Notes: generated by a model not told the origin, from the sequence alone. A stretch of 64,000 bases of DNA from an uncultured Desulfurococcales archaeon (GCA_964611985.1 CAZTBM010000005.1:12403-76402); one strand, 5' to 3'. Positions 11,102-41,218 are shown, counted from the first letter of the stretch. Made by a program: numbers and translations.

Positions 11102-11656
11102 TTACTTTCTTAAGCAACCTAAGTCGTCAAGTTTTTTATAGATCTTCCTTACAGCATCATATATCTCTTCTTCTCTCTTTGCTCCTGTGACAACCATTTT
11201 GCCAGAACTAAATATTAGTAAGACGACTTGTGGGTCATCCATTCGGTAAATTAGACCTGGGAACTGTTCAGGCTCGTACATTGAGTTTTCCAGCAAGAAA
11301 GCAGCCTTTTCAAGATTTACCTCTACGCCTAAATTAGCTGATGCAACAATGTTTTGTATTTGGACTTTCGGCCTACCAGTAATGATCATGTCATGTTTCC
11401 TTAAAATTTTGATTATCTTCTTAACAGCCTTAATTAGCTCATCAGTACTTTTTGCACCTGTTACAACCATCTTACCTGACTTGAAGATTAAAGCCGTAAC
11501 CTTGGGTTTGTCAAGTCTAAAGACCAATCCCGGAAATTGCTCAGGATTATATTCTACCCCTGGTATACTTCTCTCTATGGCATAAAGGTCAAGAGTTTGA
11601 TCAAGTGTCACTGTTGAAACTATATTCTCCACTTTTGCCGATAATCTCGGAGGCAT
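11102..11656 (-). CDS. tbp: TATA-box binding protein
   Basis: Two TBP repeats: NIVSTVTL...FPGLVFRL...[16 protein letters not shown] and NIVASANL...FPGLIYRM...[16 protein letters not shown]. Confidence 0.95.
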
Positions 11657-18338: not shown

Positions 18339-19088
18339 TCAGCCTATTAATTCATGAATATCCTTTAATGGAGGAAGTTCTAGTGCAACTCCCTCCTCAC
18401 TTATGACATAAGGTATAGCTTCCTCCAGTATACCTAGGTCTCGGACTATTGGCGATAAGTAATTCTCTCTCATAATGGTTACACGTGTTCCTAAGGCATA
18501 AATACTTAGGGCTGGAATAATCACTAACTCCTGTCCCGTTTTTAATGGGACTTTAAGAAAACATGACAACTTTGTAACATGACCTAGTTCGTCCCGGATA
18601 CTTATACTAGGATGTTCGTGACCTATTATGATTATTTTTACATGTGATGTCGCCATAGGATAGTATTCATGTCCATGGATTAAGAGAATATCGTTTATGA
18701 GCATATATTCATAGAGTGGTATATCATATTTACTAAGTATCAATGATATGTAATTATCATGATTACCTCTTGTAATATATACTTCTAATCCTTTATCTCT
18801 CAAGAATTTAATGAACTCTGAAACTTCACTCCTCTCTTGATAAGTTAGTTTAGAAAAACAATGCTTCACATCACCATTAATTATGACTTTAGAAGCCCCA
18901 CTTAGATTAAGTAATTTTTCAACCTTTTTGATGAGCTTTTTAAGTTGCACTCTAGGTAAAAAGAGCCCATGTTCAGCACTTACTTCTTCAAAGCCCAAAT
19001 GTAAATCGGCAATAACCAGGGCATCAAAGTCTCTTAGATATAGAGCTGGTTCACCATAAACTATCTCTATTCCCGGATATAGTTCCAC
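18339..19088 (-). CDS. calcineurin-like metallophosphoesterase
   Basis: Ordered motifs DLHLG, GDVKH, GNHD and GHEH. Confidence 0.8.
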   Translation of the reverse strand: MELYPGIEIVYGEPALYLRDFDALVIADLHLGFEEVSAEHGLFLPRVQLKKLIKKVEKLLNLSGASKVIINGDVKHCFSKLTYQERSEVSEFIKFLRDKGLEVYITRGNHDNYISLILSKYDIPLYEYMLINDILLIHGHEYYPMATSHVKIIIIGHEHPSISIRDELGHVTKLSCFLKVPLKTGQELVIIPALSIYALGTRVTIMRENYLSPIVRDLGILEEAIPYVISEEGVALELPPLKDIHELIG

Positions 19089-32920: not shown

Positions 32921-35900
32921 GTGCTAACACTTAATATTCTTAAACTTAAGGTTAATGCGTTATTGGTGTACAGTGACTTGATACCACACATAATATTGGG
33001 CTTTTGCCCTAATTGTAATGGTGATATTGAAGCATCAAGGTTAAGGTACGGATTACCCTGTAGTAAATGTTTACCACTGAGCAGAGAAGAGTATGAAAAA
33101 CTGATTAGTTTCGAGAGAGAGGAGAGACTAAATAAGGTACTTAATCTTTTACATAAGAATGGTAATGTAGGCAACTTGTGGAGATTATGGTTTATTGAGG
33201 AAGAATTAAAATCATTTAGTGAGTTCTTTGAAAAGGCGACTAAAAGAAGATTGTGGAGTATTCAGCGAACATGGGCTCGCAGATTATTCCTCGGTGAAAG
33301 CTTTGCAATAATTGCTCCGACTGGTGTGGGTAAAACCACGTTCCTCTCTGCATTTACTTTATATTATGCACTTAAAGGTAAAAAAGTCTACTTTATAGTG
33401 CCTACTAGAGTTCTTCTAAAACAGGTTTATGAGAAGATCTTAAGAATGCTAGAAAATGTTAACTGCCAGCTTAAGATAATAGCTTTAGGCATAAATAATA
33501 TAAATAAAGCTGAATTGGACATCTCAAAGTATGATGTAGTAATATCTTCTGCAACTTATTTATCTAGAAATTTCAAACTATTCACTAGTAGCAAATTTGA
33601 CCTGATAATAGTTGATGATGTCGATGCTCTTCTTAAAAACTCAAAAAATGTTGATAGAGTACTCTTATTACTAGGTTTTAATCAAGACGTGATAGACAAG
33701 GCATATAAACTCGTTATTGCGAAAATCAACCTATTTAAAGCATTGTCTGAAGGTAACAATGAGAATTATAAGAAGTATAAAGAGAAAGTTGAATCACTGA
33801 GAGTTGAAATAGATAAATTCCTTTCAGAGAATAATGTTGGCCAGTTGATAGTATCTAGTGCTACAGGTCGTAGTAGAGGATTAAAGGCTAAAGTATTTAA
33901 GGAGTTATTAGGCTTCGAAGCAGGTTGTGTAATGGAGTACTTAAGAAACGTAACAGACGTGTATGATGAAGCACATAGCCTTAATGAGATGATAGATAAA
34001 ACTATCAGATATGTTAAAATGTTTGGTAAAGGAGGATTAGTGTTTGTAGCACATGACTTAGGGCTTAAAGTCGCTTATATGATCAGAGATAGGCTTGCAG
34101 AGAATGGTGTTAAAGCAGAATTAGCGGCTTCAGGAAGAAGAGGCTACATTGAAAAGTTTAGTCATGGCGAAGTAGAGGTACTTGTAGGTGTCGCTTCATA
34201 CTATGGTGTTATTGTTAGAGGCTTAGACTTACCTCACATAGTTAGATATGCTATTTTCGTCGGTGTACCAAAGTTCAAGATAGACTTCACAAAAACTATA
34301 AGAAACCCCATTAAGCTATTCACAGTCATAAGCATACTCATAGACCTTGTTAATAATGATGGTGACAAAGCAAAACTTGTTGAATATTCAAATAAGCTAA
34401 AGAAACTACTATTCAAGTTAAGCTATAGCGAGATCAGACTAGTACATAAAGCGCTTGAAGGCAAAATAAATGTTGAAGGATACTTAAGGAAAGTTAAAGA
34501 GTTCCTCGAAGAAATAGGAAATTATGTAAATAAGCTTGTCAACACTTATGAGGTTAAAGAGAAGCTCGTTAGAAGCAATAGAATAACAGTTATAGATGAT
34601 AATGGCAAACTTTACGTTGTTGTACCTGATTACTTAACATATATTCAGGCAAGTGGTAGGACGTCACGATTATTCTCTAATGGTATGACCAAGGGCTTAG
34701 CTTTGACATTAGTTGACGATATGAGAGTTTATAATTTGTTACTTGAACAACTCTTACTCCACATAGACTCATTTAGTGCAAAACATGTGTCTGAAGTCAA
34801 CCTAGAAAAACTATTCAATGAGATAGATAGGGATAGAGAAATAGTAAAGGAAATGTTGATTAATGATACAGGAGTTAAAGTAAAAGATCCATTAAAGAGC
34901 GCTTTACTCATAGTGGAATCGCCTAACAAAGCCAGAACTATAGCTAGCTTCTTTGGTAAGCCTTCAAAAAGGAGATTTGGCAAGATAGTAGTTTACGAGG
35001 TTGTATTAGGCGATCCCATGTTAGGTACAGAGGACTACATGCTATCAATAGTTGCAACAAGAGGACATATACTTGACCTAACAACAGACAATAAAGGGTA
35101 CCATGGTGTACTACTAGAACCCGAAATAATGCCCATATACGAGACCATAAAGAGATGTCGATCCTGTGGATACCAATTCACTAAAGGAGACATTTGTCCA
35201 CGCTGTAAATCAAGTAATATCAGAGATTCTATTGAAATAGTACACCTACTAAGAAAGTTAGCCATGGAAGTAGATGTAGTGTTTATAGGTACAGACCCTG
35301 ATACTGAAGGAGAGAAGATAGCTTGGGATGTTTATGTGTCAATTCAACCTTATGCAAAGAACGTATATAGAGTGGAGTTTCATGAAATCACAAGAAATGC
35401 TATCGTATGCGCACTTACTAATCCTAGAATGATAGATGAGAAGCTTGTTGAGGCTCAGATTGTTCGTAGGGTTGAGGATCGTTGGATTGGTTTTGAGCTT
35501 TCATCTAGGTTGTGGAGGGTTTTCGGAAAACACTGGCTATCAGCAGGAAGAGTACAAACACCAGTACTAGGATGGATAATACAAAGACAGAAAGAATGGA
35601 AAGAAGGAAGAAGAGTTTTTGTTAAGTTAAATTACGAAAAGGGGATATCAGTTACATTAGCATTAGAGCCTAAATTAAGGGCGGTAAAGGAGGAATTACC
35701 CAAATTAAACAGAGCAAACATACTTCACATAGAGGATTATATTGAAGAGAAAAATCCGCCTCCACCATATACGACTGATAGTATATTATTCGATGCCTCT
35801 TGGAAATTAAGACTAGACGCAACTAAGGCCATGAAGATACTTCAAGAACTATTCGAAGCCGGATTAATAACTTATCATAGAACTGATAGTATTCATGTGT

Positions 35901-36715
35901 CAGGTAAAGGTTTCCAGATAGCTCAACAGTACTTAGCTTCACAGGGCTTACATCATCTTATTCAGAACAGGAGTTGGGGCCCTCATGGGACTCATGAGTG
36001 TATAAGACCCACGAGACCTATTGATGCGGAAACCTTGAGAAGAATGATTGTAGATGGAACCTTTAGAGTTCATGTTAGGCTATCTGAAATACATTTGAAG
36101 GTGTATGACTTGATCTTTACAAGGTTCATGGCAAGTCAAATGAAACAAGCAAAGGTGAAAAGAAGGAGGGTCATGCTTATGATAGGTGATAGAGTAGAGT
36201 CATTTGATGAAATAATTGATGTCTTAGAAGAAGGCTATACTCGCATATTAAGTGTTGACGTGAATAAGGAGTTGGAGAACCTGAGAGTTGGAGATATACT
36301 GAAACTGGTCGATTACACGGTATGGAAGGGCTCACTCTACCCGCTATATAAACAAGGTGACGTAGTAAAGTTGATGAAGGAGCGCGGTCTAGGTAGGCCG
36401 TCAACATACACAAAAATACTCGCATCATTATTACGACATGGATATCTATTTGAAACTAAGAGAAAATATCTCGTAGCCACGAAAATGGGCACTCTAGTAT
36501 ATGAATATTTAACAGCTAATTTTGACCAACTAGTTTCAGAGGAAAGAACAAGAATAGTTGAAGAAGTAATGAGGCTAATAGAAGAGGGCACCTTAAGCGC
36601 AAAACAAGTATTAAGAATGTTCCTAGAGGAGATCTCAAGCATAACAAGTGAAAAGCCGGAGAAAATAATAGACATAAGAGAAACCATATCTAAACTCTCA
36701 ATTACGGTTGCTTAG
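32921..36715 (+). CDS. rgy: reverse gyrase (helicase-like domain fused to type IA topoisomerase)
   Basis: N-terminal zinc finger CPNCNGDI...LPCSKC, helicase motif I APTGVGKTT and DDVD, a Toprim/topo IA part with IVESPNKARTI, a second zinc ribbon CRSCGY...CPRC, then TDPDTEGEKI and ITYHRTDS (catalytic Tyr). The true start is probably the TTG at 32978 (MIPHIILGFCPNC). Confidence 0.95.
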   Translation: MLTLNILKLKVNALLVYSDLIPHIILGFCPNCNGDIEASRLRYGLPCSKCLPLSREEYEKLISFEREERLNKVLNLLHKNGNVGNLWRLWFIEEELKSFSEFFEKATKRRLWSIQRTWARRLFLGESFAIIAPTGVGKTTFLSAFTLYYALKGKKVYFIVPTRVLLKQVYEKILRMLENVNCQLKIIALGINNINKAELDISKYDVVISSATYLSRNFKLFTSSKFDLIIVDDVDALLKNSKNVDRVLLLLGFNQDVIDKAYKLVIAKINLFKALSEGNNENYKKYKEKVESLRVEIDKFLSENNVGQLIVSSATGRSRGLKAKVFKELLGFEAGCVMEYLRNVTDVYDEAHSLNEMIDKTIRYVKMFGKGGLVFVAHDLGLKVAYMIRDRLAENGVKAELAASGRRGYIEKFSHGEVEVLVGVASYYGVIVRGLDLPHIVRYAIFVGVPKFKIDFTKTIRNPIKLFTVISILIDLVNNDGDKAKLVEYSNKLKKLLFKLSYSEIRLVHKALEGKINVEGYLRKVKEFLEEIGNYVNKLVNTYEVKEKLVRSNRITVIDDNGKLYVVVPDYLTYIQASGRTSRLFSNGMTKGLALTLVDDMRVYNLLLEQLLLHIDSFSAKHVSEVNLEKLFNEIDRDREIVKEMLINDTGVKVKDPLKSALLIVESPNKARTIASFFGKPSKRRFGKIVVYEVVLGDPMLGTEDYMLSIVATRGHILDLTTDNKGYHGVLLEPEIMPIYETIKRCRSCGYQFTKGDICPRCKSSNIRDSIEIVHLLRKLAMEVDVVFIGTDPDTEGEKIAWDVYVSIQPYAKNVYRVEFHEITRNAIVCALTNPRMIDEKLVEAQIVRRVEDRWIGFELSSRLWRVFGKHWLSAGRVQTPVLGWIIQRQKEWKEGRRVFVKLNYEKGISVTLALEPKLRAVKEELPKLNRANILHIEDYIEEKNPPPPYTTDSILFDASWKLRLDATKAMKILQELFEAGLITYHRTDSIHVSGKGFQIAQQYLASQGLHHLIQNRSWGPHGTHECIRPTRPIDAETLRRMIVDGTFRVHVRLSEIHLKVYDLIFTRFMASQMKQAKVKRRRVMLMIGDRVESFDEIIDVLEEGYTRILSVDVNKELENLRVGDILKLVDYTVWKGSLYPLYKQGDVVKLMKERGLGRPSTYTKILASLLRHGYLFETKRKYLVATKMGTLVYEYLTANFDQLVSEERTRIVEEVMRLIEEGTLSAKQVLRMFLEEISSITSEKPEKIIDIRETISKLSITVA

Positions 36716-37249: not shown

Positions 37250-37753
37250 TTGCGGTCTGAACCATTAGTTCCATGGGTTCCAACACCAGAAGACATACTT
37301 GACGAAATAGCTGATCTATTAGAACTTGATGAAAAAAGTGTATTTATAGATCTGGGTGCTGGCGATGGTAGAGTGGCTATAGCGATAGCAAAAAGAGGAG
37401 TATTCAGTATTGCTTTAGAAATAGACTTAATAAACTGTATTATAGCTAGGGATCAAGCTAAAGTAAATAATGTTCTAGTAGATGTTGTTCGAGGAGATTT
37501 CAAAACATTCCCTCTTCATAGGATTAATAGAGTATTCATGTACCTTTATAAAAGTATACAAGATGAATTAAAAGAAAAACTAGCTAACGAACTTCCTGAT
37601 GGTACACGTATTGTAACCTTAGATTTCCCCATTCCAGGCTGGATTCCTGTAAAGGTAAGAAGGTGTAATACAAGCTCTGGGGTAATTAGGACACTATACT
37701 TATATATTAAAGGGGTTTCAGAAAAAGAGAGACAATGGTGGAGTATAAAATAA
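37250..37753 (+). CDS. small class I SAM-dependent methyltransferase
   Basis: Motif I VFIDLGAGDGRVAIAIA, 167 aa, TTG start. Confidence 0.7.
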   Translation: MRSEPLVPWVPTPEDILDEIADLLELDEKSVFIDLGAGDGRVAIAIAKRGVFSIALEIDLINCIIARDQAKVNNVLVDVVRGDFKTFPLHRINRVFMYLYKSIQDELKEKLANELPDGTRIVTLDFPIPGWIPVKVRRCNTSSGVIRTLYLYIKGVSEKERQWWSIK

Positions 37754-38778
37754 GGCTCCAGGGCAGACCATTAGTAAGAATAGGCTACGATCTTGATATA
37801 CCATTAGTTGGAGCAATATCCTTCGGTCTTATAGATAGAGGAACTAATATTATCCAAGTTAGGCCAGTAAGCTTCTGCGTACTAAATTGTATATTTTGCT
37901 CTACTGATGCAGGGCCTAAGTCGAAATGTAGACAAGCAGAATACATTGTAGACCTAGATATACTCATTGAATGGTTTAAAGTTTTAGTAAAGTATAAGGG
38001 AGGAAATATCGAAGCACATATAGATACTGTGGGAGACCCACTACTATATAATAAGATAGTCGACTTAGTTCATGAATTAAAAAGCACTAAGGGAGTAAGA
38101 GTAGTTAGTATGCAAAGTCATGCACCCACACTAACTGAAAAACTAGCTGATAAACTAAATGCCGCCGGTCTTGATAGACTAAATCTCAGTATAGATGCGC
38201 TAGACCTCAATCTAGCAAAATACCTTCAAGGCACTCAGTGGTATAACGTAAATAGAGTTATGGAGGTGACGGAATACATTGTTAAGAACACTAGAATAGA
38301 TGTACTTCTAGCTCCCGTTCTTCTACCGGGAATAAATGATCAGGAGTTACCAAAGATTATCGAATGGGGGTTAAGGATCGGCGTAGGCAAGAAGTGGCCT
38401 CCCTTTGGCATCCAAAAATACCTAAAACATAAGTATGGTAGGAAACCAAAAGGCATTAAGAGTATGAGTTGGAAAGAATTCTATAACTATCTAAGAAACC
38501 TAGAAAGAAAGTATAATGTGAAGCTTATAAACGATCTAAGCGATTTTGGAGTAGAACACAAACCTATGATACCCTTAAGGTTTAGAGTTAATGAAAGGGT
38601 TAGAGTAAAAGTTGTAGCACCTGGCTGGCTAAGAGGGGAGAAACTCTGCATACCATTAAGTAAAGGAGGAGATAGAGTTATAACACTCATAAATGCGGAT
38701 GATATACCACTTGGGGCTAAGGTTACAGCTAGAATAATAGCAAATAAGCACAATATTTATCTTGCAGAACCATTATAA
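37735..38778 (+). CDS. radical SAM protein
   Basis: CVLNCIFCS is a CxxxCxxC cluster near the N-terminus with a TIM-barrel-like remainder. It overlaps the methyltransferase gene by 19 nt. Confidence 0.8.
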   Translation: MVEYKIRLQGRPLVRIGYDLDIPLVGAISFGLIDRGTNIIQVRPVSFCVLNCIFCSTDAGPKSKCRQAEYIVDLDILIEWFKVLVKYKGGNIEAHIDTVGDPLLYNKIVDLVHELKSTKGVRVVSMQSHAPTLTEKLADKLNAAGLDRLNLSIDALDLNLAKYLQGTQWYNVNRVMEVTEYIVKNTRIDVLLAPVLLPGINDQELPKIIEWGLRIGVGKKWPPFGIQKYLKHKYGRKPKGIKSMSWKEFYNYLRNLERKYNVKLINDLSDFGVEHKPMIPLRFRVNERVRVKVVAPGWLRGEKLCIPLSKGGDRVITLINADDIPLGAKVTARIIANKHNIYLAEPL

Positions 38779-38826: not shown

Positions 38827-39135
38827 TTATATCATAGCTGCATCAGCAAAGTAATTATCTTCTCTATGAGGTCTAAGGAAGTTTAAAAGTGACTTCATAT
38901 CTAAGTCTGTTAACATGTTGAACTCTATAACATTGATACTACCTTTCTTATCCTTATCTTCGTATGTTCTAACGAATATATCATTGATAACTATAGTGTT
39001 TATATGTTCCGTTAATCTATTAGGCTCTATTTTAAGTTGTGGACTATACTCTATCCTAACATTAGGCTCTGTATGAACACTAATACTCATAACATTAACT
39101 ATATCATATCTGCTAACCTTAAAAGTAAGCCTCAT
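38827..39135 (-). CDS. hypothetical protein
   Basis: 102-aa ORF with no motif. Confidence 0.4.
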   Translation of the reverse strand: MRLTFKVSRYDIVNVMSISVHTEPNVRIEYSPQLKIEPNRLTEHINTIVINDIFVRTYEDKDKKGSINVIEFNMLTDLDMKSLLNFLRPHREDNYFADAAMI

Positions 39136-39274
39136 ACTCGCTCCCTAATAAGAATTTATATTATCGACATAGATACTTAAAGCTCAGTACTCAATAATAA
39201 TAAGTGAGTCATCTTTGAAAACATAATCATGAAAGTATGGAACATACTAAATTCATAGTCATGGAGGACTAAAT

Positions 39275-39721
39275 TTGACCATAATTGAAGGAACCGTTGT
39301 AATACTCGATCTTGACAGGTTTAGCGAGTTAACAAAATCTATGGGATGGGACGAATATAAACCAAACATTATAACTGGTACATTAACCCATTTAGTTGAA
39401 GATTTCGTAAGAAAATACAGTGCTGATATATTATATGGTCTAGATCACAAAAGAGGAACAGAGGAAGCGGTAATTGAAATACCATACGTAAAGCCGGAGG
39501 AAATAATAGATGATCTTAAAAGAATAAAGGCTGAAATAGAGAAGCTAGGAGCCTCTATAAGCATAGGAGTCGCTTATGGCCCTTTAGAACCTGTCAAAGT
39601 AAGATGTAGAAGAGATGCATATTCAGGTATAACTCGGAGAAAAGCCCTTAAAGCTCTTAGAGAGGCAAAGAGAAAAGGAGGTAATAAAATAGTCATTTTT
39701 GGGTTAGGTGTAGTAGGATGA
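39275..39721 (+). CDS. minimal GGDEF / Cas10-palm-like (nucleotide cyclase fold) protein
   Basis: 148 aa. VVILDLDRF matches the metal-binding DxD strand, GTEEAVIEIP (aa 61-70) sits where GGEEFxxxLP occurs, SISIGVA matches tvSiGva, and ALKALREAKRKGGNKIVIF matches ADxALYxAKxxGRNxv. TTG start with GGAGGA 8 nt upstream. Confidence 0.55.
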   Translation: MTIIEGTVVILDLDRFSELTKSMGWDEYKPNIITGTLTHLVEDFVRKYSADILYGLDHKRGTEEAVIEIPYVKPEEIIDDLKRIKAEIEKLGASISIGVAYGPLEPVKVRCRRDAYSGITRRKALKALREAKRKGGNKIVIFGLGVVG

Positions 39722-40368
39722 AACTGAAAGAACTTCTTAGTGAGATTACAAAGGCTAAGAGAGGTGTAAAGCCCGCCTATACTAAATACCATGTACTTAA
39801 ATGTTTATTATTAATATACAATGATGAACCGATTGGCAGAATTAAACTTTCAAAGGCTTTAAATCTTGGTGAAACATCTGTTAGGACGCTTCTTAGTAGA
39901 TTGAAGGAACTGGATATTATAAATATAGATAGAGTGGGAGGGGTCTATTTATCAGATCATGGCAGATCATTACTTAAAAAGGTAATGGATATTATACATG
40001 GCATTCAGAAAATTGATTCCATCTATATAGAAAAGATTATGCCACAGTATAAGTACGTGTATAGTTTGTCATTAAAAATCCCATTACGAAAACTTAATAT
40101 TAAGCTCACAAGCTTAAGAGACATAATTATAAGATCTGGAGCTGATGCAGCATTAATATTGATAGTAGAGAATGGTAAATTATGTTTACCATATGATGAT
40201 ACTGTTATATGTGAGGACTCGAATGAAGATCTAATGTTCTTAAGACAAGGTCTCAACATAGATGAAGCCAAAACCATATTATTAGCTTTATCCTCTAGAA
40301 GCGATAATCAAGCAGAAAAAGCTCTAATAGGGACTCTAATAGAGTTAATGGAAAATGACCTAATATAG
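39718..40368 (+). CDS. wHTH protein with uncharacterised C-terminal alpha/beta domain
   Basis: IGRIKLSKALNLGETSVRTLLSRLKELDII is wHTH-like. There is a 4-nt ATGA overlap with the upstream GGDEF-like gene. Confidence 0.5.
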   Translation: MKLKELLSEITKAKRGVKPAYTKYHVLKCLLLIYNDEPIGRIKLSKALNLGETSVRTLLSRLKELDIINIDRVGGVYLSDHGRSLLKKVMDIIHGIQKIDSIYIEKIMPQYKYVYSLSLKIPLRKLNIKLTSLRDIIIRSGADAALILIVENGKLCLPYDDTVICEDSNEDLMFLRQGLNIDEAKTILLALSSRSDNQAEKALIGTLIELMENDLI

Positions 40369-40384
40369 TGAGTGGTGCGCGATT

Positions 40385-41218
40385 ATGACTCGATATGCCA
40401 TTGAGTACATTAAAGTGGGGTATAGGGCAGATAACACACCCATATTTATTCCCATGCTACGTTTTATTAGTTCAGGTAAAGCTTCACCACTTATGATTTT
40501 ACCATTAAATTTACTTATTGTCCCAAAGGTCATATGGAGTGTAGTACATAAACTTAAAGCACAGGATATTAAACGTGATGTTCTACTTCTAATGCCCAGC
40601 CCTGAATATGATTTAGGCCATATAGATATTGAAGACTACATTGTTAGTAATAATAAAATATGGGGTAAAATAGCTGAGAAGGTTCCTGAACATACTATAT
40701 TATTAACGATTTCATCATCAGGTATTGGTTTACCTTTCATCAAATATATGAGAGTAAAGGGTGTCCTTGAGGAACATTTAAAGAATGCTAATATCCCAGT
40801 AATATGGGATGCTTGGCTTTTAGATAAATTACCTTATAATACGTTTAAGCACAAGGTTGATGATGTGTTAATTTTGAAGATACCAGAGGATTATGACAAA
40901 GCATTAGATTTACTGATACTCTTACTACAATTATTGAATGTTCTAGAGATCTCTGAGAAAAAGCCAGAATCTATAATAGCTAATTTAAAGTTAAAAGGAA
41001 ACAGGATACACAGAATATTCTATGATAAATCGGGCTTTGTAGTATATCATATTAAGGCAGGAGATTATGTAGAGAAAGGACAAACAATAGCAGACATTAA
41101 GGGTTTTTTCGGAGAGACCATAGGGCAAGTGAAAACACCTATTAATGGTTTGATAGTTTCATTAAAAACTTTTAGGATAATTAAGCCAGGTGACTTAATA
41201 GTAGAATTAGTCACATGA
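40385..41218 (+). CDS. succinylglutamate desuccinylase/aspartoacylase (AstE/AspA)-like protein, metal ligands apparently missing
   Basis: C-terminal hammerhead region KAGDYVEKGQTIADIKGFFGETIGQVKTPINGLIVSL...IKPGDLIVEL is typical of the family. The expected N-terminal HGxE site reads LNLL. Confidence 0.4.
   Translation: MTRYAIEYIKVGYRADNTPIFIPMLRFISSGKASPLMILPLNLLIVPKVIWSVVHKLKAQDIKRDVLLLMPSPEYDLGHIDIEDYIVSNNKIWGKIAEKVPEHTILLTISSSGIGLPFIKYMRVKGVLEEHLKNANIPVIWDAWLLDKLPYNTFKHKVDDVLILKIPEDYDKALDLLILLLQLLNVLEISEKKPESIIANLKLKGNRIHRIFYDKSGFVVYHIKAGDYVEKGQTIADIKGFFGETIGQVKTPINGLIVSLKTFRIIKPGDLIVELVT

Follow-up and report, generated by a model that had tools for sequence, protein, structure and literature searches.

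The gene discussed here lies in a 64,000-nucleotide stretch of DNA from an uncultured Desulfurococcales archaeon (GCA_964611985.1 CAZTBM010000005.1:12403-76402), hereafter the window, and it heads a run of three genes at positions 39,275 to 41,218. We found that this first gene (gene 1; 39275-39721, + strand, TTG start) encodes a GGDEF-related palm protein of 148 amino acids (aa) from a small archaeal family whose members are stand-alone GGDEF relatives; it is a real relative of the bacterial GGDEF cyclases and, to judge from its conserved residues, probably an active one. The explanation that we prefer, at slightly better than even chances, is that gene 1 encodes a predicted housekeeping enzyme of the GGDEF-type palm fold, which uses nucleoside triphosphates (NTPs) and is recurrently paired with a phosphoesterase. 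The three-gene unit itself is a lineage-specific local arrangement, not the conserved producer-sensor-effector system that an earlier note on this DNA had envisaged, and the family, previously noted in 2005 and 2010 and uncharacterised, is not new.

The three open reading frames (ORFs), the core motifs of gene 1 with their spacing, and the ATGA overlap between the first two genes, all of which the earlier note had described, were confirmed by ORF listing and by reading of the DNA. In the protein, these motifs are D12-L-D14, G61-T-E-E-A 47 residues after D14, SISIGVA at residues 94-100, and ALKALREAKRKGGNKIVIF at residues 124-142. A search of the protein database returned 123 clusters of homologous archaeal proteins of 140-180 aa, 66 of which make up the family alignment that was used for the conservation analysis, for the AlphaFold2 (AF2) model, and for scanning each member against Pfam. 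We assign gene 1 to GGDEF because its homologues give significant matches where the single protein stays sub-threshold. Pfam GGDEF (PF00990) was matched by 17 of the 66 members (best E 3.4e-6) and Pfam GGDEF_GdpP by 15 (best E 1.3e-7, the lowest of any model), while the Cas10 palm2 model was matched weakly by a single member (E 0.051), and none of the 66 matched Guanylate_cyc, Thg1, a polymerase model, or GCH_III, the last at a threshold of E<=0.1. An exhaustive search with the family profile against 1.84 billion representatives matched 46 clusters; the family is archaeal except that two canonical bacterial GGDEF proteins, P0159 and P0162, were also detected by the profile, full-length and at E=1e-5 and 8e-5. 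In the profile alignment with canonical GGDEF sequences, DLD corresponds to DLDHFK, GTEE to GGEE, and AKRkGGN to AKkkGRN. When the profile was compared with the PDB, the top matches were designed TIM barrels in which the basic C-terminal helix alone was aligned, and these were set aside as noise. Apart from a single Toprim fusion, all family members stand alone and are 143-197 aa long, and they include one from an Aeropyrum sp. (locus L042, 50% identity) and a GC-rich member (P0147).

The structural evidence points the same way. The AF2 model, computed from the family alignment, has a predicted local distance difference test score (pLDDT) of 94.7 and a predicted template-modelling score (pTM) of 0.90, and class III cyclases together with GGDEF domains fill the top of its list of 50 Foldseek matches in the PDB (E 2e-6 to 1.4e-4; template-modelling score, TM, up to 0.69). 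The GGDEF structures among them are DosC, 3ign, WspR, DgcZ, and PleD-type domains (E 6e-6 to 1e-4, TM 0.55-0.67), and identity to gene 1 is higher for the GGDEF domains (22-25%) than for the class III cyclases (12-18%). The GGDEF/cyclase palm that had been read from the sequence is thus borne out by the AF2 model, by Foldseek, and by the profile matches to canonical GGDEF proteins, while the likeness to minimal Cas10-type polymerases (mCpol) that had been drawn at the same time is weaker than that to GGDEF, since Cas10 (6o7b) stands at rank 50 of the Foldseek list and only one family member touches the palm2 model, and weakly, where the GGDEF and GGDEF_GdpP models are matched by 17 and 15.

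Both acidic motifs are conserved in the homologues, as the earlier note had supposed. Twelve positions are invariant in the 66-member alignment (D12, L13, D14, P30, N31, G55, G61, T62, E63, E64, K132, and G136), and when the family was clustered at 50% identity and each of the 29 clusters was represented once, D12, D14, N31, T34, G55, G61, T62, E63, and K132 were invariant, as was E64 but for a Q in the single Toprim fusion. D12, D14, E63, E64, and K132 are the predicted catalytic and NTP-binding residues. In GGDEF enzymes, a C-terminal Lys helix holds the NTP phosphates; this helix is kept in gene 1, where K132 aligns to a Lys of AKKKGRN and the Arg of GRN is replaced by the invariant G136. 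Catalytic competence is therefore likely, because the metal-binding acidic residues and K132 are conserved. The departures from the canonical domain concern its periphery and its base recognition. Gene 1 lacks approximately the first 37 positions of the GGDEF model (the match begins at position 38), no RxxD I-site is present N-terminal to the hairpin, and there is no sensor, receiver, or dimerisation domain, the missing sensor having been pointed out before. Guanine is specified in diguanylate cyclases by an Asn (FKxxND) and an Asp (GHxxGD), with roles as in PleD. Neither these residues nor the GRN Arg are retained in the gene 1 family; the positions aligned to the Asn and Asp are variable or occupied by T34/G35, and the guanine-binding segment is replaced by a family-specific '(E)YxPN..T' loop with invariant P30-N31 and T34. 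The loss of these residues means that a diguanylate cyclase reaction should not be assumed, and neither GTP specificity nor cyclic di-GMP (c-di-GMP) as a product would be implied for gene 1 by its residues.

The family has been described in the literature before. The census by Galperin (2005; PMC1183210) lists MK0296 from Methanopyrus kandleri (Q8TYK1) and APE1864 from Aeropyrum pernix (Q9YAS9) as 'truncated' GGDEF sequences and leaves them out of the count of diguanylate cyclases. Anantharaman, Iyer and Aravind (2010; PMC2904730) predicted these archaeal GGDEF relatives to be active because the three acidic residues are kept, but judged them 'unlikely to be signaling proteins'; for some GGDEF domains they brought up an activity as RNA nucleotidyltransferases. 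We infer that the gene 1 family is of the MK0296/APE1864 type, which was matched by the literature description and the Aeropyrum sp. homologue L042, not by direct alignment, with the GC-rich member P0147 as further indirect support. The earlier note had called canonical GGDEF signalling essentially unknown in Crenarchaeota, and reviews indeed regard archaea as a whole as lacking GGDEF enzymes and c-di-GMP (PMC10249747, PMC5847659); the family is the conserved exception to this view that was set aside as 'truncated' in 2005. What the present work adds is that the catalytic residues are invariant over the whole known diversity, that the gene is a housekeeping gene, and that it has reproducible partners. 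These partners, a phosphoesterase of two unrelated superfamilies and the TATA-binding protein (TBP), are concrete new leads.

We compared genomic contexts in 95 loci with a family member, which comprised 62 GTDB species and 26 metagenome contigs from a scan with the subfamily alignment together with individual look-ups, and the neighbouring ORFs of all of them were clustered (loci carry L numbers below). Outside Desulfurococcales, the recurrent partner is a PHP+PHP_C phosphoesterase of approximately 200 aa. The two genes make up a compact operon, with the phosphoesterase immediately downstream of the family gene, overlapping it or within about 50 nucleotides (nt), in six loci (L031:6438-7034, L070:5644-6237, L074:2823-3455, L076:823-1410, L093:476-1072, and L094:1128-1566), the PHP gene is two genes away in L077 and L078, and weaker PHP-like ORFs overlap the family gene from upstream in a third clade (L095:2331-2981, L096:3363-4013, and L100:3387-4013). 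The nearest NCBIfam models of the PHP partner are CehA/McbA, 3',5'-nucleoside bisphosphate phosphatase, and RNase RNM. A second phosphoesterase, the PdeM-like/SbcD_rel_arch metallophosphoesterase, stands within two genes in 28 loci and is directly adjacent in 3 loci without TBP at that position; its cluster representative scores 128.5 bits against TIGR00024 (cut-off 115.2). The idea that it is a cyclic-nucleotide phosphodiesterase was dropped; it matches TIGR00024, and the ligase-associated PdeM model stays below its cut-off.

The most frequent neighbour is the TBP gene, which adjoins the family gene in 39 of the 95 loci (L004 and loci within L011-L069), all from Desulfurococcales in the broad sense and spanning Desulfurococcaceae, Acidilobaceae, and related metagenome-assembled genomes (MAGs), with the TBP of L004 recognised by a Pfam match. 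As a rule the PdeM-like gene stands next to this pair in Desulfurococcales. Among the first 38 of these loci, the gap between the two genes is 39-263 bp except in L064, where it is 5 kb, and TBP is co-directional and upstream in 19, divergent in 15, convergent in 3, and downstream on the same strand in 1. The outer flanks of the pair, judged by eye and by length, vary by clade (HtpX-like peptidase, membrane protein, radical SAM, TIP49-like ATPase, or TldD-like), and the changing flanks indicate that TBP and the GGDEF-like gene form the constant core. The family gene sits in a housekeeping context, not a defence or mobile one. A PADLOC search gave zero matches, with a 2023 database that is older than Panoptes, and 2.9 million viral contigs in IMG/VR contained zero relatives of the gene 1 family.

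On our preferred explanation, the gene 1 protein would bind NTP-Mg2+ through its acidic residues and lysine helix, as GGDEF domains do, and would catalyse nucleotidyl transfer with a base specificity that may be different or relaxed and need not be for GTP. By likeness to isolated GGDEF and mCpol palms, the action would most simply be that of a homodimer joining two NTPs, and the mechanism that we consider most likely is that two NTPs are condensed to a dinucleotide, either linear or cyclic. The linkage to phosphoesterases from two different superfamilies suggests a make-and-break pair, in which the recurrently linked phosphoesterase would then degrade the dinucleotide product. In the lineage studied here, a PH0730-type regulator would be expressed together with the enzyme, which it may control or to which it may respond. 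The DNA-binding neighbours (TBP, the PH0730-type winged helix-turn-helix (wHTH) protein, and other wHTH ORFs) are candidate read-outs, which is the weakest step of the scheme.

Several points weigh against this explanation. Taken alone, the gene 1 protein gives full-length GGDEF matches that are sub-threshold: TIGR00254 at E=0.016 and 14.9 bits (cut-off 37.4), SiaD at E=0.0027, Pfam GGDEF_GdpP at E=0.027 and 15.2 bits (cut-off 30), and PDB 3ign at E=0.16, so that the protein itself falls under every curated GGDEF cut-off (E=0.016-0.027). Its hairpin reads GTEEA instead of the literal GG[DE][DE]F, with G changed to T (T62 being invariant) and F to A, and the loss of the guanine-binding Asn/Asp and of the GRN Arg adds to this. 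No receptor was identified. TBP adjacency could be inherited synteny without functional meaning, and tgtA, the Toprim fusion, the PdeM-like enzyme with its ligase-associated family, and the nearby DNA ligase, UDG, and RadA genes fit an enzyme directed at nucleic acids equally well. We found no biochemical or experimental papers on the family in the literature, the equation with MK0296/APE1864 comes from description and L042 instead of direct alignment, and c-di-GMP was undetected in the archaea examined (PMC10249747), which are species not known to carry the family.

The second-ranked explanation is that the family is an RNA- or DNA-directed nucleotidyltransferase, acting in Thg1-type tRNA 5'-end repair or as one half of an end-healing and extension pair in which the linked PHP or PdeM-like enzyme would trim or dephosphorylate the end. 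We regard it as unlikely, although the same contexts fit it almost as well as they fit the enzyme that we prefer. The tgtA gene (ArcTGT; TIGR00432, 547 bits) is directly upstream of the family gene or overlaps it in four loci (L006:3382-5004, L031:4397-6016, L071:1-386, and L094:2-706), the models nearest to the PHP partner include RNase RNM and 3',5'-nucleoside bisphosphate phosphatase, and the PdeM-like partner comes from a family related to ligase-associated endonucleases. One member (P0154, L070:4782-5660) is fused to an intact N-terminal Toprim domain, with its E and DxD motifs in place and a hairpin that reads GTEQ, and neighbours in various loci include DNA ligase, UDG, TIP49, RadA, Cdc6, and an RsmB-like methyltransferase. 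The doubts about signalling and the RNA nucleotidyltransferase activity raised in the 2010 study (PMC2904730) also speak for it. On the other side, the nearest sequence relatives are GGDEF proteins, down to the GGDEF-specific C-terminal phosphate-binding helix, whereas none of the 66 members matches a Thg1 or polymerase model. The protein has only 148 aa without an extra nucleic-acid-binding domain, the isoelectric points across the family (4.9-9.8) give the reading no help and are uninformative on nucleic-acid binding, and the contexts are heterogeneous, with several neighbours on the opposite strand. A 148-residue thermostable protein should be easily expressed, so a role in making a GGDEF-derived nucleotide and a role on RNA can be decided between by a simple assay.

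A bolder form of the dinucleotide mechanism is that the family synthesises a hitherto undetected nucleotide messenger in hyperthermophilic archaea: a minimal constitutive cyclase would make a non-guanine or mixed di- or oligonucleotide, PHP or PdeM-like enzymes would turn it over, and transcription would be the read-out, through TBP in most Desulfurococcales and through the PH0730-type wHTH protein in this lineage. If true, archaea would thereby have their first case of GGDEF-type signalling, and we hold this reading to be distinctly unlikely, somewhat more so than the nucleic-acid transferase.

Improbable, in our judgement, is the dedicated signal module that the earlier note had put forward, in which the GGDEF-like protein is the producer, a wHTH-DUF4443 protein the sensor, and a 277-aa pseudoenzyme the effector. 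The second gene (39718-40368, + strand) encodes a 216-aa winged-helix protein of the PH0730-like/DUF4443 family, and the third (40385-41218, + strand) a fast-evolving, lineage-specific protein of 277 aa. The ATGA at 39718-39721 (+ strand), in which the stop of gene 1 overlaps the start of gene 2, indicates translational coupling to a wHTH protein with an alpha/beta C-terminal domain, as had been described, and since the end of gene 2 is separated from the start of gene 3 by 16 nt, the overlap and the short spacing of these co-directional ORFs make one three-gene transcription unit plausible. The gene order is kept in L008 and L009, whose gene 1 homologues are 78% and 68% identical, and gene 2 encodes a regulator of the one-component type whose small domain is uncharacterised. 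That all three genes should be conserved together had been named beforehand as a refuting test, and here the module is not upheld, because the wHTH-DUF4443 gene adjoins a gene 1 homologue in only 3 of the 95 loci, namely this species, L008, and L009. The overlap of the first two genes recurs in L008, with a separation of 6 nt in L009 instead, and gene 3 is recognisable in this species and L008, while L009 has a 260-aa ORF in the same position with a marginal E=0.007, so that the third gene reaches BLAST significance in two lineages only. The value of the three-gene finding is accordingly modest, that of a local arrangement and not a system.

The properties of the two downstream genes also argue against such a module. 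Gene 2 combines an N-terminal wHTH with a small alpha/beta C-terminal domain and scores 44.9 bits against PF22167 (PH0730-like_N; cut-off 30.2) and 45.4 bits against PF14544 (DUF4443; cut-off 27). Its top PDB match by sequence is 2p8t (E=3e-11), which is also the first Foldseek match (E=8e-11) of its AF2 model (pLDDT 86). The other matches are mostly wHTH regulators (BirA, Rio2, RbkR, CggR, and IclR), with AspRS as the exception to these wHTH-driven alignments (about 148 alignment columns, TMq 0.37). Neither CARF nor SAVED structures occur in the 50 best Foldseek matches of gene 2. Gene 2 has 5 homologues in the whole protein database, and no sequence from Thermococcales, which carry PH0730, appears among the database matches of the gene 1 family. 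Gene 3 has 2 real homologues among 5.8 billion clusters and evolves very fast, with 42-44% identity where gene 1 keeps 78%. Its C-terminus (approximately residues 204-275) weakly resembles a biotinyl/lipoyl-like barrel-sandwich (Pfam Biotin_lipoyl/RnfC_N, best E=4e-4), and its C-terminal 60-100 residues or so weakly match TIGR02994 (E=0.067) and the succinylglutamate desuccinylase structures 8ein/8eip (E approximately 0.2-0.3). None of the four gene 3-family members matches an AstE/AspA Pfam model, and phmmer and a four-sequence profile against the PDB gave the barrel-sandwich C-terminus alone, so the AstE/AspA-like pseudoenzyme proposed for gene 3 is without statistical support, and the earlier reading of its HGxE metal site as LNLL is likewise not confirmed. 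The protein has no effector or enzyme signature, and its N-terminal 200 residues are without an assignment.

Slightly more improbable still is that the gene 1 protein is an NTP-binding or NTP-hydrolysing regulator that makes no oligonucleotide and acts through protein contacts, for instance with the wHTH protein or with TBP. The model for this is GdpP, whose degenerate GGDEF domain is a weak ATPase, and GGDEF_GdpP is matched by 15 of the 66 members with the lowest E of any model (1.3e-7). The altered GG[DE]EF hairpin, the lost guanine-binding residues, and the persistence of the gene beside genes for DNA-binding proteins would all suit such a regulator, while the full invariance of both metal motifs and the Lys is more typical of an active transferase.

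The two remaining explanations are effectively excluded by genomic context and profile searches. One is that the protein, with the same fold as GTP cyclohydrolase III (GCH III), opens a ring as that enzyme does, in the metabolism of riboflavin/F420 or of 7-deazaguanine; a GCH III relative was the alternative that the earlier note had kept. GCH III (ArfA) has a related palm fold with a GGDN hairpin and handles GTP with two metal ions, and the tgtA genes in four loci and the convergent CofE and MobA-like genes near the family gene in nine loci could be read in its favour. We consider it very improbable: none of the 66 members matches Pfam GCH_III, no GCH III structure occurs in the Foldseek top 50, and the 148-aa protein is about half the size of GCH III (approximately 250 aa). 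The F420 genes run in the opposite direction, on the other strand, and the queD/queE (7-deazaguanine) cluster suspected in Pyrodictiaceae was not confirmed, as it dissolved into a 124-aa ORF without a family match and a radical SAM protein that is not QueE. Least probable of all is a minimal Cas10 polymerase of the mCpol/OptS type, belonging to a Panoptes-like system against viruses, a class whose members make cyclic dinucleotides constitutively (PMC12657218) and share with gene 1 a similar size and a stand-alone palm without a sensor domain, since S-2TMbeta, CARF, SAVED, or HEPN partners occur in 0 of the 95 loci, the genes around it serve housekeeping functions, none of the Foldseek top 50 is labelled OptS, mCpol, or Panoptes and Cas10 stands only at rank 50, the PADLOC (2023 database, predating Panoptes) and viral-contig searches were negative, and gene 1 retains the acidic GGDEF-type hairpin that is nearly absent from OptS mCpol proteins (PMC12657218).

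Around the three-gene unit, a Shine-Dalgarno-like GGAGG (39263-39267, + strand) is found 8 nt 5' of the gene 1 TTG, and this GGAGGA...TTG layout is kept in L008. Further upstream, a 27-nt block at 39176-39202 (ATACTTAAAGCTCAGTACTCAATAATA), approximately 75-100 nt 5' of gene 1, is near-identical in L008 and is kept in part in L009. An inverted repeat with 9-nt arms (39159-39167 / 39191-39199) shares one of them with this block, which could be a promoter or operator. A doubtful 102-aa ORF on the - strand (38827-39135), in the interval from the radical SAM gene to gene 1, has no family match and is conserved in L008 only. On the other side, an A/T-rich spacer of 80 nt separates gene 3 from the adenylate kinase gene. 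The genes flanking the unit are those for reverse gyrase (32921-36715), adenylate kinase, XPF, and NAPRTase, the G+C content of the window is approximately 35%, and its closest relatives are Desulfurococcales MAGs. No Rfam family reached its gathering score anywhere in the 64 kb, and thus no tRNA, rRNA, or riboswitch was detected there.

The link to TBP is broken in the lineage of the window. A TBP gene at 11102-11656 (- strand), which by tblastn is 66% identical to the representative of the TBP cluster, lies 28 kb from gene 1, and a PdeM-like/SbcD_rel_arch gene at 18339-19088 (- strand; tblastn, 41% identity) is displaced by approximately 20 kb. The sole usual Desulfurococcales neighbour still beside gene 1 is the gene for a 347-aa radical SAM protein (37735-38778, + strand) with a MoaA-like core and weak matches far below cut-off. 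A RaSEA identity, considered for this protein, met with these weak MoaA-like matches only. In 11 other species, its homologues occur within a few kilobases of the block formed by the PdeM-like, TBP, and GGDEF-like genes. A 167-aa methyltransferase (37250-37753) overlaps the start of this radical SAM gene by 19 nt and shows a weak, sub-cut-off match to a model of archaeal protein-lysine methyltransferase; the pair recurs in L018, L024, and L037.

Other loci of the family show further associations. In L070, a PF1765-like gene precedes the Toprim fusion and the PHP gene overlaps the end of the fusion. In L077 (472-3019) and L078, the genes around the family member encode an HD_4 protein of the RelA/SpoT type, a nucleotidyltransferase of the Pol-beta type, and the PHP phosphoesterase, a neighbourhood that looks like nucleotide metabolism or signalling. 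A 228-aa ORF (cluster c16) without a Pfam match, in which an N-terminal wHTH and a PD-(D/E)xK-like C-terminus can be made out by eye, lies divergently upstream in 9 metagenome loci within L079-L098 (e.g. L082:2817-3503), and the CofE and MobA-like NTP transferase genes are convergently downstream in the same nine. In L072 (3436-5432), from a GC-rich archaeal MAG, the family member overlaps, in ATGA fashion, the end of a SerA-like phosphoglycerate dehydrogenase with an ACT domain, and in the Pyrodictiaceae loci a 2-hydroxyacid dehydrogenase is two genes upstream of the family gene. Pyrodictiaceae also have a shorter TGT-like ORF without a family match, approximately 2.2 kb off on the other strand.

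Outside its own family, gene 1 is nearest in sequence to canonical GGDEF domains. With the bacterial diguanylate cyclases (PF00990; DosC 4zve, 3ign, and PleD) it has in common the palm fold and, in a full-length alignment, the DxD strand, the acidic hairpin, and the 'AK..G.N' helix; unlike them, it falls below the Pfam and TIGRFAM cut-offs and lacks about 37 N-terminal positions, the I-site, the guanine-specifying Asn/Asp, and a sensor. The class III cyclases (M. avium Ma1120 and Rv1900c) give the best Foldseek E-value (2e-6) with TM 0.6-0.69, but identity is only 12-18%, 0 of 66 members match Guanylate_cyc, and the motif pattern of gene 1 (DxDxF, hairpin EE, and C-terminal Lys helix) is that of GGDEF. 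GCH III is about twice the size of gene 1, shows no sequence-level match, and lies outside the top structural matches. Compared with mCpol/OptS, gene 1 is GGDEF-like and not Cas10-like, and it has a housekeeping context with no membrane or CARF/SAVED effector. Gene 2 finds its counterpart in PH0730 of Pyrococcus horikoshii (2p8t), itself uncharacterised, which has the same wHTH and DUF4443 architecture at 26% identity. As for the archaeal proteins recorded before, the wHTH-DUF4443 operon, TBP adjacency, and PHP linkage are absent from the available portions of the 2005 and 2010 accounts of MK0296 and APE1864. These two proteins and gene 1 are alike in being archaeal and stand-alone, in their size of approximately 150 aa, in a truncated GGDEF-like palm with its acidic residues kept, in having no attached signalling domains, and in coming from hyperthermophilic hosts that include Aeropyrum (L042).

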